A stretch of DNA of 64,000 nt from Thermoplasmata archaeon (GTDB taxonomy: Archaea; Thermoplasmatota; E2; UBA202; JdFR-43), in the NCBI GenBank assembly GCA_021162065.1, contig JAGGZK010000042.1, positions 506 through 64,505 on the forward strand. Direction: 5' to 3'. Below are positions 22,103 through 51,036 of the stretch, in pieces. The notes below the pieces were generated by a model, which saw nothing but the letters and a program-made list of their open reading frames with translations, made no database searches and was not told the origin of the DNA. The stretch's first letter is position 1, and every line of letters begins with the position of its first letter. The position numbers and the translations under genes are program-made.

Positions 22103-22280
22103 GTTTGTTTAATGGCGGAGGAAATAAAAAAGTTTTTATACCCGGATTTTTCCACACGAAATGGGCTATGCCATAAACTCAAAATGAAAAAAGTTAAAAA
22201 ATGATGTATAATTCTTATCTTAGAAATGGGTTTTAATCCGCCAAAAATCAGAAAACTTTTTAAACCCTTTCTGTATTACA

Positions 22281-22356
22281 ATTGTCGGACAATGACGGAC
22301 ATTGTTGGACAAAAGGGTCCGAAAGGACGCCAATATGTCCGCCGTGTGTCCGTAGG
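22281..22356 (+). promoter_or_regulatory. Phased operator-like array of YGGACA / TGTCCG half-sites upstream of the RHH (CdrS-like)-ftsZ pair
   Basis: Three direct CGGACA, CGGACA, TGGACA at 10-bp spacing. Then a central GGTCCgaaaGGAC palindrome. Then two TGTCCG (reverse complement of CGGACA) at 11-bp spacing. The array lies between a TATA-like TTTTTAAAC (22256-22264) and the ATG at 22366. Confidence 0.45.
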
Positions 22357-22365
22357 TGAATAAAA

Positions 22366-22593
22366 ATGGAAACGGAGAAAGTGACCGTAAGACTGCCAGT
22401 GCATCTCGTTCATGCCATAGATACCTTTATAAATATGGGGGAATTCGCCTCCCGCTCGGAGGCAATCAGAAGGGCATTGAATAAGTTTGTAAAGGAACTC
22501 ATGCAGGATTTCCAGGAAAAGACAGAGATGTGGATGAAACTTCAGGAACTTCAGGCATTTACCGAGGAGATAGAAAAGTTGAGGAAAAAGTAG
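22366..22593 (+). CDS. cdrS: Ribbon-helix-helix (CopG/CdrS-like) transcriptional regulator immediately upstream of ftsZ
   Basis: [34 protein letters not shown] is a beta-strand plus two-helix RHH fold. 75 aa. The gene order RHH-ftsZ2 matches the conserved cdrS-ftsZ2 pair of Euryarchaeota. Confidence 0.6.
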
Positions 22594-22645: not shown

Positions 22646-23716
22646 ATGAAAAGTATAATTGAAAACGCGATGAAATATGGGAGCGAGAGGCAAGTTGACA
22701 TAAAGGATTTTGGTGTAGCCAAGATTCTGGTGGTCGGAGTAGGAGGTGCCGGAGGAAATACTGTAACCAGGCTGCATGAGATAGGCATCAACGGAGCGGA
22801 GACAATAGTCATAAACACCGATAAGCAGGCACTGGACCTGGCGAAGGCGAACAAAAAACTTCTGATAGGCAAGGCAATAACCAGGGGCTTAGGAGCGGGA
22901 GGATACCCGGATGTTGCGAAGAGATGTGCCGAGGAGTCCAGAGACGAAATCGAGGAAATAATAGGGGAGCCGGACCTTGTCTTCATAACGGCAGGAATGG
23001 GTGGAGGCACAGGCACAGGAGCATCTCCGATGGTGGCAAAGATAGCAAAGAGACAGGGGGCAATAGTTGTTGGCATGGTTTCCATACCATTCAGGGTGGA
23101 GAGAGGAAGGATGCTGAGGGCGGAGCAGGGACTTGAATCATTGAGGAAGGAATGCGATTCCGTCGTTATCCTGGATAACAACAAACTGCTGGATTTTGTT
23201 CCCCATTTGCCCATAGATAAGGCATTCTCTGTGATGGACCAGCTCATAGCAGAGACGGTTAAGGGTATTTCGGAAACCATAGTGGAGCCATCGCTTATCA
23301 ATTTGGATTACGCCGACGTGAAAACCATAGTTTCCGGAGGAGATGTGGCGGCAATGCTCTGGGGTGAAGGAACAACGAGAGATGGGCCTGAGGCAATAGC
23401 ACACGAGGCCATGCATCATCCACTGCTGGAGGTGGATTTCAAGGGAGCCAAGGGATGCCTTATTCACATAACCGGTGGACCGGACATGTCCTTGGAGTTT
23501 GCGGAGAAGGTTGCGGAGTACATGACCCAGGAGTTGGATCCATACGCCAATGTGATAATGGGTGCAAGGGTGAATAATGACTACAACGGAAAGTGCAGGA
23601 TAATGGCCATAATGACAGGTGTTTCCTCGCCATACATACTCTCCCCCAAGGATCAGCCGGTTGTTCTGCCCCGCTGGGAGAACGGTCAGAAAAATGGAAT
23701 AGACATAATCGGCTAA
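22646..23716 (+). CDS. ftsZ: Cell division GTPase FtsZ
   Basis: [10 protein letters not shown] tubulin signature, [13 protein letters not shown]4 loop, NTD and C-terminal domain. Start at the second Met (the track ORF starts at 22610). Confidence 0.95.
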
Positions 23717-23727
23717 ATCTTTTCCCC

Positions 23728-24945
23728 CTATATCTTTATTTTTTCTCCATTTTTTGGCATGTAGACGTTGGCATCCACATCATCTGCAAGTGCCTCTGGA
23801 TTTTCGGAATGCACTATGACAACATTTTCCGGGGAGCATTTATTTATAAATTTCACAAGTTCGCTGTGGCCCGCATGGGCGGAAAAATCATAAAACTTTA
23901 CCTGGCAGTTTACTCTGGTTTTCACTCCATACAGGTTTATCTCCCCATTTTCCAGAAGCATCCTGCCGTTGGTTCCCTCCACCTGATAGCCCGTTATTAT
24001 GACAGCAGATTTGGGGTCATCCTTTATCTTATCTATGTACCATAACACAGGCCCTCCATTCAGCATCCCGCTGGTGGTGAGCACTATCCCGGATTTGAGG
24101 GCGAGTTTTTTGCCATGATCGGAGTAAACGAGGTTTGCGTTGTCCATGGCCTTTTTCAGCTCTGCAGGCGAGCGAAGGTATCCTCCATGTTTGAGCAGGA
24201 TATCGGATATCTTCCTGCCCATTCCTTCCAGCCAGAACTCATGGCCCGCTCCATTGAGAACCATGGCCAGTTCCTGCGTTCTCCCCACGGCAAAGGCGGG
24301 TATTATCACCTTCCCTCCTCTATTAACTATGTCCTCCACCTCGTCCAGAAATTCCCTCTCCAGCTGGGGGCGGGGAGGATGCTCCACGCCAGCATATGTT
24401 CCCTCTATGAAAAGCGTCTCGCATCTCACCGGCTCCGCTCCTCTGAGGAGATGGCTGTCAACCGTATTTATGTCAAAGGCGTAAAGGATGGAGAAATCTA
24501 CAAGTTCCACCATGGCCGAGCCGGGTATATGGCCCGCTGAATGAAACCTCACCCTTATTCCGTCTATTTCCCTCTCATCCCCTATCTCCATCCTCCTGAA
24601 TTTATCGGAAGAGATTTCCACCTCATTCAGGCCATAGGGATATGGATGCCCCTTGGAATCGGCTATTTTTACGGCATCTCTGAAAAGAATATCGGATATC
24701 TCTCTCGTTATGTCGGTGGAAAAAATTCTTGTGCCATATCTGCTGCACAGCCAGGGAACCATGCCCGAATGGTCAAGATGGGCATGGGTTATTATGGCGT
24801 TCTTTACGGGAGGAGATTCCATGGGGTAAAGAGGTGGCTCCTCAGGCATTATACCATAGTCAATGAGAAGTTTTTTGCCCTCAATTTCATTAAAAACGCC
24901 CAATCTGCCGACTTCCCTGCCTCCGCCGAGTATTGTTGCTTCCAT
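23728..24945 (-). CDS. Metallo-beta-lactamase / beta-CASP family ribonuclease (aCPSF2 / RNase J-like)
   Basis: HAHLDHSG motif 2, downstream His/Asp beta-CASP motifs (HSAGH, SAHAGH). 405 aa. Confidence 0.7.
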   Translation of the reverse strand: MEATILGGGREVGRLGVFNEIEGKKLLIDYGIMPEEPPLYPMESPPVKNAIITHAHLDHSGMVPWLCSRYGTRIFSTDITREISDILFRDAVKIADSKGHPYPYGLNEVEISSDKFRRMEIGDEREIDGIRVRFHSAGHIPGSAMVELVDFSILYAFDINTVDSHLLRGAEPVRCETLFIEGTYAGVEHPPRPQLEREFLDEVEDIVNRGGKVIIPAFAVGRTQELAMVLNGAGHEFWLEGMGRKISDILLKHGGYLRSPAELKKAMDNANLVYSDHGKKLALKSGIVLTTSGMLNGGPVLWYIDKIKDDPKSAVIITGYQVEGTNGRMLLENGEINLYGVKTRVNCQVKFYDFSAHAGHSELVKFINKCSPENVVIVHSENPEALADDVDANVYMPKNGEKIKI

Positions 24946-49002: not shown

Positions 49003-49095
49003 ATGGGTAATATTTCCCTCCTATTTATTTTCATCATCCCGCCCATTCTCCATAAAAGTTAAATGCTTTATCTGATTAGGTTAGTGGGGATAAAA

Positions 49096-51036
49096 ATGAA
49101 GGGATACTGGATTATACTGGTTGCCATGGGATTGATTCTGGCGAATGTGGCAGTGGTGGGGGTAAATAGGCATGTTGTCAGTGAGAAAGGCATGGAGGCG
49201 ATAGCAGACAAGATACACTTTTCCACATACAATCTCAGGGAGAATGGGGAGTATCTGAACGTGGTTATGGAGAATGCAAGGTATCTTCACAGGGCGGGAG
49301 AGCCGGTGCTTCCCTACTACACAAAAACCTACTATTTTCCTCTGGGAACAAGGGTGAAGGTGGAATGCATACCGGAAAGCATAGAGGTGGAGAAGGTTGG
49401 CAGAAGAATAATGCCTGCCTCAGAGCCCACGCCTCTCAACAGCATGGGTGAAACAAAGGAAATCATAAAGGAGGAGGTGTATGCCAGCAGCAAAGCATAT
49501 CCCGATGCATGGTATTCATACAATCTTGGGGGAGGACTTGTCGACGGAAAGCATGTTACCATACTTTCTCTCCATATATATCCTGTAAGGTATATTCCCG
49601 CCGCCGGCGAGATACAGTTCTCTAAGAATTTCCAGGTGAGGATAGATTATTCCCTGCCTGATAGGGGCATGGACACGGTGGACACCTATGACCTCGTCAT
49701 AATATGTCCGAGCGAGTGGAAGGGCGCCATAGATACGCTGAAGCAGCACAAGGAGAGCCACGGGGTAAAGACGCTGGTGAAGACCGTGGAGGATATAGTG
49801 GCCACCTATGACGGCAGGGACGGGGCGGAGAAGATAAAGTACTTCATCAAGGATGCCATAGAGGAATACGGCATAAAATATGTGCTTCTTGTTGGGGGCA
49901 AGAAATCCTACTTTACAGGAAACTGGGGATATGATGGCCCGACCCACCATGACGACAGCCTCTGGTACTGCCCGGTGAGATATGTGGCGCTCGATGACAA
50001 CGCGGAGAAGGGATACATAAGCGATTTGTACTTTGCTGACATCTACGATGCTTACGGCAATTTCTCATCCTGGGATAGCAACGGCGATGGAATATTCGGT
50101 GCCTGGTCCTTTAAGTATGGAAAGGACACCATGGACTTTTACCCCGATGTTTATGTTGGCCGCCTTGCCTGCAGGAGCGAGAAGGAGCTGCAGAACGTCA
50201 TGAACAAGATAATAACCTACGAGAACGGCAATGTGAAGAGTGAGGAATGGTTCAACAGGATGCTGCTGGTTGGAGGAGATACCTTCAACGATGCCGATAA
50301 TCTTCCCGAGGGAGAGATATCTACTGAGTGGTTCTATGACCATTACATGGCTGGAGATTTTGATAAAACCAGTTTGTTCGTCACCGATGGCACACTCACC
50401 TACGGGCATACCGAGCCCAATGAACTGGCGGGAAGATTTGCCTGGGTGAATGTGATAAAGGAGTTCAGTAAGGGATACGGCTTCGTTGTCTTCGACGGCC
50501 ATGGAAGCCCGACGGCATGGGCCACCCATTTTCTGGGCTATGCAAGTCACACTGACCCGTGGGTTAACGGGCTTATGACCTACAATATGGATCTCCTCCA
50601 GAACAAGAACATGCCCTCCATATTCATCATAGGGGGATGCCACAACAGCGAGTTCAACATAAGCCTGATGGACTTCATGAACAACGAATGGACATACCAG
50701 CCCACCTACGAATGCTTCGGATGGCACATTGTCAAGATGGCGGACAGGGGGGCGATAGCAAGCATAGGAAATACCGGCCTCGGATATGGAGAGAGCGGCG
50801 GCGACAGGAACGGCAATGGAGTGCCAGATTGCGTGGAGTACAATGGTGGATACATAGAGGACAGGTTCTTTGAGGCATATGGTGTGGAAGGAAAGGACGT
50901 GCTTGGAGAGACATGGGGAACGGCCATAACAAACTACATAAACACATTTCCACCACTGGAGGACAGAATAGATGCCAAAACCATAGAGGAATGGGTGCTG
51001 CTTGGGGACCCATCCCTCAAGATAGGGGGCTACTGA
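49096..51036 (+). CDS. Secreted peptidase C25 (gingipain-like, clan CD) family protein
   Basis: Signal/TM segment MKGYWIILVAMGLILANVAVVG. VVFDGHGSPTAWATHF (His-Gly) and PSIFIIGGCHNSEF (Cys) are spaced about 40 aa apart, as in gingipain catalytic dyads. Confidence 0.65.
   Translation: MKGYWIILVAMGLILANVAVVGVNRHVVSEKGMEAIADKIHFSTYNLRENGEYLNVVMENARYLHRAGEPVLPYYTKTYYFPLGTRVKVECIPESIEVEKVGRRIMPASEPTPLNSMGETKEIIKEEVYASSKAYPDAWYSYNLGGGLVDGKHVTILSLHIYPVRYIPAAGEIQFSKNFQVRIDYSLPDRGMDTVDTYDLVIICPSEWKGAIDTLKQHKESHGVKTLVKTVEDIVATYDGRDGAEKIKYFIKDAIEEYGIKYVLLVGGKKSYFTGNWGYDGPTHHDDSLWYCPVRYVALDDNAEKGYISDLYFADIYDAYGNFSSWDSNGDGIFGAWSFKYGKDTMDFYPDVYVGRLACRSEKELQNVMNKIITYENGNVKSEEWFNRMLLVGGDTFNDADNLPEGEISTEWFYDHYMAGDFDKTSLFVTDGTLTYGHTEPNELAGRFAWVNVIKEFSKGYGFVVFDGHGSPTAWATHFLGYASHTDPWVNGLMTYNMDLLQNKNMPSIFIIGGCHNSEFNISLMDFMNNEWTYQPTYECFGWHIVKMADRGAIASIGNTGLGYGESGGDRNGNGVPDCVEYNGGYIEDRFFEAYGVEGKDVLGETWGTAITNYINTFPPLEDRIDAKTIEEWVLLGDPSLKIGGY

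Follow-up and report, generated by a model that had tools for sequence, protein, structure and literature searches.

A window of 64,000 nucleotides from a Thermoplasmata metagenome-assembled genome (MAG; contig JAGGZK010000042.1) carries, at positions 22281-22356, an array of short repeats in the interval from the TATA box to the start codon of a small ribbon-helix-helix (RHH) gene, which resembles the haloarchaeal regulator gene cdrS and is followed by ftsZ. The explanation we favor, with about even confidence, is that this region is dual-coded. On the DNA, a helically phased operator array would cover the start site and the leader; in the transcript, the same stretch would fold into a conserved hairpin at the 5' end of the leader. 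The evidence consists of an invariant 11-bp palindrome at the predicted transcription start site (TSS), of boxes that recur in helical phase with it, and of base-pair covariation along the leader. Such a promoter-proximal candidate RHH operator array, lying on an undescribed conserved leader hairpin, has so far been found only in a clade of Thermoplasmatota.

The start-site palindrome and the phased boxes

A total of 51 related loci was obtained from two collection scans, and more distant ones were added by profile search and contig look-ups. The homologs all come from Thermoplasmata MAGs, many of hydrothermal origin, and their upstream regions have a common layout: a B recognition element (BRE) and TATA box come first, followed after some 8 nt of variable sequence by (G)TATTA(C) and, 0-6 nt further on, by TTGTC-N-GACAA; then come a variable leader, 30-100 nt long, a G-rich Shine-Dalgarno (SD) sequence and the ATG. 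The palindrome TTGTC-N-GACAA, 11 bp long, is the only piece whose sequence is invariant; some 40 orthologous promoters, over a range of 49-95% protein identity, have it at the same position. An exact match to TGTCNGACA is present once at the RHH promoter in 48 of the 52 loci and once in the entire window, where two of the thirteen matches with one mismatch abut it at 10-bp steps. The palindrome is retained in two loci whose RHH homologs are 50-52% identical (L053, L054), and a more distant clade with a 79-aa RHH protein keeps TGTCNG(A/T)C at the palindrome position. Its left half is invariant even though it stands outside the RNA fold described below, upstream of or at the predicted +1. In one locus where ftsZ is not adjacent (L059), the palindrome and the hairpin stay together with the RHH gene, an arrangement that fits autoregulation.

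The repeat array itself was located much as the original prediction had described it. There are three direct copies on the + strand at 10-bp spacing (CGGACA at 22286 and 22296, TGGACA at 22306), a central GTCC-N4-GGAC (GTCC at 22317-22320, GGAC at 22325-22328 and GAAA between them, with GGTCCgaaaGGAC spanning 22316-22328), and two reverse-complement copies, TGTCCG (CGGACA on the - strand), at 22336 and 22347 with 11-bp spacing. The dyad axis near nt 22322 and the placement of the array in the interval from the TATA box to the ATG, with RHH and ftsZ downstream, were likewise as claimed. The distance from the end of the array to the ATG had been given as 10 bp; the last TGTCCG in fact ends 13 nt before it. 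Tandem Repeats Finder gave a period of 10 bp with 2.7 copies over 22286-22312, and a repeat search showed that copies 1 and 3 form the 12-mers ATTGTCGGACAA and ATTGTTGGACAA, 20 bp apart.

The GGACA/TGTCC motif cluster is real and non-random. Over the whole 64 kb, YGGACA occurs at the chance rate (55 observed vs 52 +/- 8), and five of the 55 copies lie inside 67 bp, where 0.058 would be expected. A Poisson estimate for this cluster is ~5e-9 per 67-bp span, or ~5e-6 after correction for ~1000 spans. With six GACA/TGTC in 80 bp, this is the window's densest cluster (mean 4.5 and maximum 7 in block shuffles) and the only dense one of its kind there. Outside the locus, TGTCNGACA with up to one mismatch is at chance level in the window. 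The regulon of similar arrays that the original prediction had raised thus left no sign within the 64 kb. A second small YGGACA cluster, three copies in 40 bp at 49670-49710, lies inside an open reading frame (ORF) of 657 aa (49063-51036, +) and is most likely a coding coincidence.

Conservation of the half-sites, when the upstream regions were aligned, divided the array. The palindrome that contains copy 1 is invariant and the unit of copy 3 recurs in several lineages; copies 2, 4 and 5 are not conserved as hexamers, and they and the central GTCC-N4-GGAC were seen only in the two closest relatives (92-95% identity). The third unit, TTG(C/T)TGGACAA, lies 20-21 bp from unit 1 and keeps its sequence in the window group, in L003/L004/L028, in L024/L050 and in L032; the second unit is not conserved.

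What recurs in every leader is a set of boxes of the GACAAA/TTTGTC type, located at multiples of ~10.7 bp from the palindrome. GACA/TGTC is the most enriched 4-mer pair within the leaders, with 49 observed vs 10.6 +/- 3.1 expected. Same-orientation box distances are 10, 20/21, 31, 43/44 and 64 bp, and 21, 42, 53, 64/65, 75 and 96 bp; in the window, the TGTC boxes of both TGTCCG copies are 53 and 64 bp from the start-site TGTC, which amounts to about 5 and 6 helical turns. At ~10.7 bp and zero offset from the start-site box, the phase is R 0.75-0.79 for GACA, 0.86-0.88 for TGTC and 0.91-0.92 for ACAA and TTGT. The phased words include A-tracts (CAAA, R 0.82; AAAA, R 0.70). The span of the hairpin, that is of the dyad, falls only in classes of 32, 42, 64-66, 74-75, 87 and 96 nt, with a best period of 10.85 (R 0.94, Monte-Carlo P 0.004-0.01), and leader insertions and deletions appear to be quantised at ~10.7-10.85 nt. 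Helical phasing together with quantised length changes is what a protein complex on one face of the DNA would impose. The phasing is taken as moderate evidence, given its post hoc statistics and the relatedness of the lineages.

Several features of the related loci stand beside these results. Within one lineage, L003, L006 and L005 have a common closing helix and lengths that differ by +11 and +21 nt. A second motif recurs within the leaders of L009, L011, L016, L022, L023, L032, L034, L035 and L010-type loci: (A)TGGCA...TGCC, in many cases in the form GGCAAA(T)TTGCC. With 42 occurrences it ranks next in enrichment among the 4-mer pairs, and it is absent from the window's own leader. In two lineages (groups C and D), an apparently duplicated BRE/TATA lies 83-117 bp upstream of the RHH promoter (L010 1259-1340; L018 2791; L019 2800; L020 2792; L021 2793; L037 742; L048 258-300; L049 543-590). 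This duplicated module, ~100 bp upstream, carries a single extra palindrome or a pair of them at 12-bp spacing; counted more broadly, it has between one and four TGTC-N-G(A/G)C units in tandem (12 bp apart in L048/L049), followed by a G+C-rich hairpin and a T-run. The extra palindromes, 83-117 bp from the main one, keep no consistent phase with it, and the module has no Rfam match; it may be a tandem promoter from which a small RNA is made, or its units may be auxiliary operators. In the 79-aa clade (L056 1260-1500, L060 960-1200, L062 960-1200), the RHH protein belongs to PF17723 and is found in a conserved TPR-RHH-ftsZ order; one contig has a PRC-barrel gene further upstream. The clade's own conserved leader start reads TGTCNG(A/T)C(A/T)TATGCCATACA, ~18 nt past the TATA box, and an AGATATC box replaces GTATTAC. 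Upstream of the L056 TATA box there are four direct (G)YAGGAC(A) repeats, from which GGACA was considered as a recognition box; it was rejected, the repeats being absent from the relatives L060-L062.

The leader hairpin

The five half-sites are nested in a fold of the transcript. Copy 1 pairs with copy 5 (helix P1), copy 2 with copy 4 (P2) and copy 3 partly with GCCAAU (P3), and the central palindrome forms P4. The minimum free energy (MFE) of the window leader is -32.7 kcal/mol (z -3.96), and none of 200 shuffles was equally stable. All 36 unique orthologous leaders fold into a closed hairpin, with a mean z of -4.6. The first nucleotide, which is the palindrome centre, is paired with nt 64-66 or 75 in 30 of the 36. 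In all orthologs P1 closes a few nt 5' of a GGGGG, GGAGG or GGTGA run, ~2 nt 5' of the SD in the best reading. In the window, the SD and the AUG are left single-stranded, with mean unpaired probabilities of 0.90 and 0.88, respectively.

The helices are kept by compensatory change rather than by sequence. The centre N of the palindrome covaries with the base after TTTGTC (G-C, U-A, A-U, U.G and G.U). In L001, one of the two closest relatives, copy 2 has changed from CGGACA to CAGACA together with a change of copy 4 from TGTCCG to TGTCTG. The distal closing helix consists of unrelated sequences in different lineages with complementarity retained; examples of such arms are AAUGACGU/ACGUCAUU, AAGGC/GCCUU, ACGAUGUACA/UGUACAUCGU and AAGGAGGUCAU/AUGACUUCCUU. 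For RNAalifold the leaders were split by length class. The 65-nt class gave 14 P1 pairs, 10 of them with double changes, and the 76-nt class gave 11 pairs, two of them covarying. A MAFFT alignment of all 36 leaders gave no pairs, because the length classes misalign. In a pair-count control, 85% of the cells were paired vs 29-39% with slid partners, and compensatory cells numbered 31 vs 11.4 +/- 2.5 in shuffles, none of 500 shuffles attaining the observed covariation score. Built from the alignment of the 65-nt class, the covariance model R1 matches the window at 22287-22367 only (68 bits, E 4e-11) and finds one site per locus.

The dyad is therefore maintained by covariation of positions that are not themselves conserved, which indicates a folded transcript, a possibility the original prediction had not considered. 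The symmetric drift of the two arms is not protein-driven, since the recognition strand of the RHH protein is nearly invariant; base pairing is required, most simply in the mRNA.

The class of this RNA was also considered. A riboswitch was rejected, as the interior differs between lineages in sequence, length (span 32 to 96 nt) and branching and there is no conserved unpaired core. An intrinsic terminator or attenuator was rejected because UAGGUGAAUAAAAAUG comes after P1 and no T-run intervenes before the ATG. An RNA thermometer would not leave the SD unpaired, a C/D-box or k-turn RNA would need a box C or box D, of which there is neither, and a miniature inverted-repeat transposable element is at odds with a palindrome that is unique in the window and an element that is orthologous in position. 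An Rfam scan of 22150-22450 gave nothing better than E 2.4 (17 bits), and four related loci gave no match.

Covariation and stability are the strongest quantitative signals, and they raise the question whether RNA is all there is. The region would then be a conserved structured 5' untranslated region (UTR), serving as a stability element or as a factor-bound cis-regulatory RNA; GACA/UGUC would be stem blocks that arose by arm duplications, the start-site palindrome would exist only because the initiator region favors a promoter-proximal TTGTC, and no protein would read the DNA boxes. This is a tentative possibility, on the unlikely side. Besides the covariation and stability, the nested helices P1-P4 account for all five half-sites and the central palindrome, the apical part changes fast even among relatives that are 92-95% identical, the covariance model gives a single match per locus, and the period of 10.85 is as near the 11 of A-form RNA as the 10.5 of B-DNA. 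However, the invariant left half of the palindrome is unneeded for folding and would compete with the fold if it were transcribed. A hairpin predicts neither a quantised loop-spanning distance nor zero-offset phasing to an untranscribed TGTC. The third box, TTGCTGGACAA, keeps its sequence where its pairing partners vary, and extra tandem palindromes are found in the duplicated upstream promoters. Nor do the arms show an excess of G.U pairs, a riboswitch-like unpaired core or an Rfam match.

The opposite simplification, DNA without RNA, is the model originally proposed, in which an array of RHH half-sites with dyad symmetry serves as an autoregulatory operator; the hairpin would then be an unselected by-product of the inverted arrangement. 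The phasing and enrichment of the boxes, the palindrome at the predicted TSS and the adjacent RHH gene all speak for it, and known RHH operators are short tandem or inverted repeats that are bound cooperatively. We nevertheless consider it improbable. The positions between and beyond the boxes are wholly different between lineages yet complementary, a conserved recognition strand cannot explain the symmetric drift, and copies 2, 4 and 5 and the central GTCC-N4-GGAC are unconserved beyond the closest relatives. Template-switch homogenisation of quasi-palindromes could mimic the compensation, but it is not known to act on arms 40-90 nt apart. What survives of the autoregulatory operator is the start-site palindrome, the phasing across lineages and a module that stays with its RHH gene; conservation of the hexamers fell away, and the dyad is better explained by base-pairing covariation.

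Promoter, operon and proposed mechanism

The features of the locus are collected in Table 1. Among 35 unique orthologous promoters, the aligned counterpart of the window's TATA element is (A)AAATAGAAAnnTATATAAAC, and archaeal promoter geometry suggests that the BRE and TATA elements function as the promoter of the operon. The same geometry would place +1 at ~22287 +/- 2, with the first T of the TATA box (22257-22264) at -30. A 12-nt inverted repeat, AATGGGTTTTAA / TTTAAACCCTTT, at 22225-22236 and 22259-22270 (83% complementary), brackets the BRE/TATA and can be made out in the closest relatives alone (L001 and, in part, L002).

Table 1. Positions of promoter, leader and gene features in the window
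Feature	Position	Strand	Remarks
BRE-like purine run (AGAAAAC) and TATA box TTTTTAAA(C)	22250..22265	+	putative promoter of the RHH-ftsZ operon
TATA-like TTTTTAAAC	22257-22265	+	read from sequence
TGTATTAC box	22272..22279	+	~-15 to -8; fixed distance from TATA box; just outside 22281-22356, 2 nt upstream of it
Palindrome TTGTC-G-GACAA	22282..22292	.	centred on G22287 (predicted +1); candidate core operator; right half also 5' strand of P1
Three tandem 10-bp units TGTCGGACAA / TGACGGACAT / TGTTGGACAA	22283..22312	+	each palindrome-like, with at most one mismatch
Leader hairpin	22286..22352	+	P1 22286-22294/22343-22352 (bulge G22346); P2 22296-22302/22335-22341
Leader hairpin, apical part		+	P3 22304-22310/22329-22334; P4 22317-22320/22325-22328; GAAA loop 22321-22324
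Two TGTCCG copies	22336..22352	+	3' strands of P2 and P1
Shine-Dalgarno AGGTGA	22354-22359	+	
Start codon ATG	22366-22368	+	
CdrS-like RHH protein, 75 aa	22366..22593	+	candidate binder of the array
ftsZ	22646..23716	+	Tubulin/FtsZ_C domains; TIGR00065, E 1e-114; 52 nt 3' of the RHH stop codon

The 75-aa RHH protein matches PF01402 (E 1.7e-7). Its best NCBIfam match is haloarchaeal CdrS, NF058555 (37.9 bits, E 1.3e-9, below the cut-off of 100 bits), and it matches aCcr1_fam, NF053762, weakly (22.3 bits, below the cut-off of 60 bits). The N-terminal strand, T-x-K-(I/V)-T-V-R-L-P, is nearly invariant among the homologs. An AlphaFold model (pLDDT 78) shows the N-terminal strand region, a helix at 12-23 and one long helix at 30-74, in which helix 2 is prolonged to 45 residues; a search of solved structures with this protein gave only insignificant ferritin matches and no relative. 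The ftsZ gene is probably co-transcribed with the RHH gene, and the RHH-ftsZ order is also found in L053, L054, L056 and L060. Upstream, the neighbour of the operon is a divergent transglutaminase-like gene, and there is no cdrL-like gene next to the operon in the window. Downstream and convergent with ftsZ, a gene at 23728-24945 (-) codes for a 405-aa RNase of the beta-CASP/metallo-beta-lactamase type, which is aCPSF-like without the N-terminal KH domains of aCPSF1. The order RHH-ftsZ-betaCASP is retained in L053. That a 5'-end-dependent RNase stands beside an operon with a 5'-terminal stem may be a coincidence.

Conservation of the TGTATTAC box (gTATTAc) is moderate; its distance from the TATA box is constant, and its gap to the palindrome varies from 0 to 6 nt. 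The box agrees with the aCcr1-box as published, A(T/G)G(A)TA(G)A(T/G)TACN / AGTATTA (PMC9976878, PMC9976892), which the YGGACA array itself does not match. GTATTAC and TGTATTA occur at the chance rate in the window, and the other four GTATTAC copies are inside ORFs. The box could equally be a promoter-proximal element or an RHH site of the aCcr1-box type. It is very improbable that the operator has another reader, for example a regulator of the Lrp type or some different factor, a chromatin protein that recognises DNA with phased A-tracts, or the RHH protein acting only through TGTATTAC. In favor of this, CdrL, not CdrS, binds the cdrS promoter in Halobacterium, TGTATTAC matches the aCcr1-box, and the phased A-tracts (CAAA, AAAA) would also fit intrinsic curvature. 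Against it, no cdrL-like gene lies beside the operon, and the palindrome and hairpin stay with the RHH gene where ftsZ is elsewhere (L059).

The RHH protein is the natural candidate for binding the array, because the module travels with its gene and the model shows the long helix 30-74. According to the dual-coded reading, RHH dimers would nucleate on the start-site palindrome TTGTC-N-GACAA, which straddles the predicted +1. From there, cooperative binding would extend all the way to the SD along the (G)ACAAA / TTTGT(C) boxes, which lie at multiples of ~10.7 bp and share one helix face; the dimer-dimer contacts would perhaps be made by the 30-residue C-terminal helix that prolongs helix 2. The bound array would occlude the start site and the early transcribed region, so that the most likely mechanism is negative autoregulation. 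The transcript would be expected to fold, since the boxes form inverted pairs and their flanks are selected to pair. Its 65-nt hairpin would have the first pair at the first transcribed nucleotide or nucleotides and the SD exposed. As a 5'-terminal stem, the hairpin would most likely stabilise the mRNA and hold a long leader full of boxes in compact form while leaving translation unblocked; the free ribosome-binding site is consistent with such a stabilising or compacting role.

Several points weigh against this reading. The TSS is predicted from the TATA distance alone, and it is from sequence that we infer binding of the RHH protein to the array. The aCcr1-box-like TGTATTAC beside the palindrome offers an alternative RHH site, and the window holds no second target. 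The phasing statistics rest on few independent events (six length classes, ~13 distinct box positions) in related lineages and are post hoc, and duplication of arm units of 10-11 nt during hairpin growth could give the same periodicity without a protein. The arm mismatches show no excess of G.U over A.C on the + strand (10 vs 18), and the + strand has the lower MFE in 22 of the 36 leaders only. The strand of the hairpin is consequently assigned from context and not from the pairing pattern, as the wobble asymmetry is absent and the + strand is only slightly more stable. In Haloferax, moreover, CdrS sites are mostly 41-110 nt upstream of the TSS and activating, and the protein's own promoter is not among the 18 sites found by chromatin immunoprecipitation sequencing (ChIP-seq) (PMC8406309); in Halobacterium, the cdrS promoter is bound by CdrL (PMC7439475).

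A further step, in which the same GACAAA/UUUGUC boxes are read on the promoter DNA and again as an mRNA duplex, by the RHH protein or a partner, is decidedly doubtful. If it were true, transcriptional autoregulation of cdrS-ftsZ would be coupled through one palindromic code to post-transcriptional control, of stability or translation, with a strict helical-phase rule for leader length, and the leader would be an undescribed dual DNA/RNA control element of archaeal cell division. Apart from this, the locus offers a testable cis-element for uncultured hydrothermal Thermoplasmata, namely the 11-bp start-site palindrome with its phased boxes, a candidate autoregulatory loop that has no need of CdrL, and a covarying leader hairpin that is absent from Rfam. 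The leader-length steps of ~10.7 nt are a simple prediction that can be checked with more genomes.

Comparison with known systems

To our knowledge, no transcriptional regulators of FtsZ-based division in archaea are known besides RHH proteins of the CdrS type, and control of cdrS-type operons is known only in haloarchaea, by CdrL. The likeness to haloarchaeal CdrS lies in a small RHH gene directly upstream of, and co-oriented with, ftsZ, as in the cdrS-ftsZ2 operon, and CdrS is the best NCBIfam match. In contrast, the 75-aa Thermoplasmata protein has an extended C-terminal helix, and its score of 38 bits falls short of the cut-off of 100, the NCBIfam model being haloarchaeal. The CdrS motif from ChIP-seq in Haloferax is reported to be symmetric and suggests binding as a multimer (PMC8406309). 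The cdrS mRNA of Haloferax has a 5' UTR, and CdrS reportedly affects its own expression (PMC12699388).

The nearest counterpart described is aCcr1, the RHH cell-cycle repressor of Sulfolobales, whose binding was proposed to block formation of the pre-initiation complex (PMC9976878, PMC9976892). Each is a small RHH protein, aCcr1 a cell-cycle regulator and the window protein a candidate one; the window protein has a weak match to aCcr1_fam, and the aCcr1-like box TGTATTAC is nearby. The two differ in several respects. First, the boxes here are TGTC-N-GACA / GACAAA, whereas that of aCcr1 is AGTATTA. Second, the target here is the regulator's own operon with ftsZ, and that of aCcr1 is cdvA. Third, there are more copies here, helically phased over ~65 bp and overlapping a covarying RNA hairpin. 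Fourth, the window protein is under the family cut-off (22 vs 60 bits).

MetJ metboxes and the operators of Arc, CopG, omega (heptads) and ParR (parC iterons) consist of short direct or inverted repeats, regularly spaced and often placed over the regulator's own promoter, on which RHH dimers contact each other cooperatively. With units at 10, 10 and 11 bp in the window and the phase kept across lineages, these systems may serve as mechanistic analogues. The unit here, a 9-bp palindrome at multiples of ~10.7 bp and often 21-22 bp apart, matches none of them exactly, and we know of none of these operators that doubles as a conserved RNA hairpin. On the RNA side, 5'-terminal stem-loops that stabilise mRNA (ompA-type leaders) are known from bacteria. 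The leader hairpin resembles them in having a stable helix that begins no more than one nucleotide from the 5' end and a free ribosome-binding site, and from this geometry a similar function may be proposed. Phased boxes with a leader hairpin are an arrangement not yet described for the CdrS-type regulator family: aCcr1, CdrS and the classical RHH arrays each share part of it, and none of them combines phased boxes with a covarying leader hairpin.

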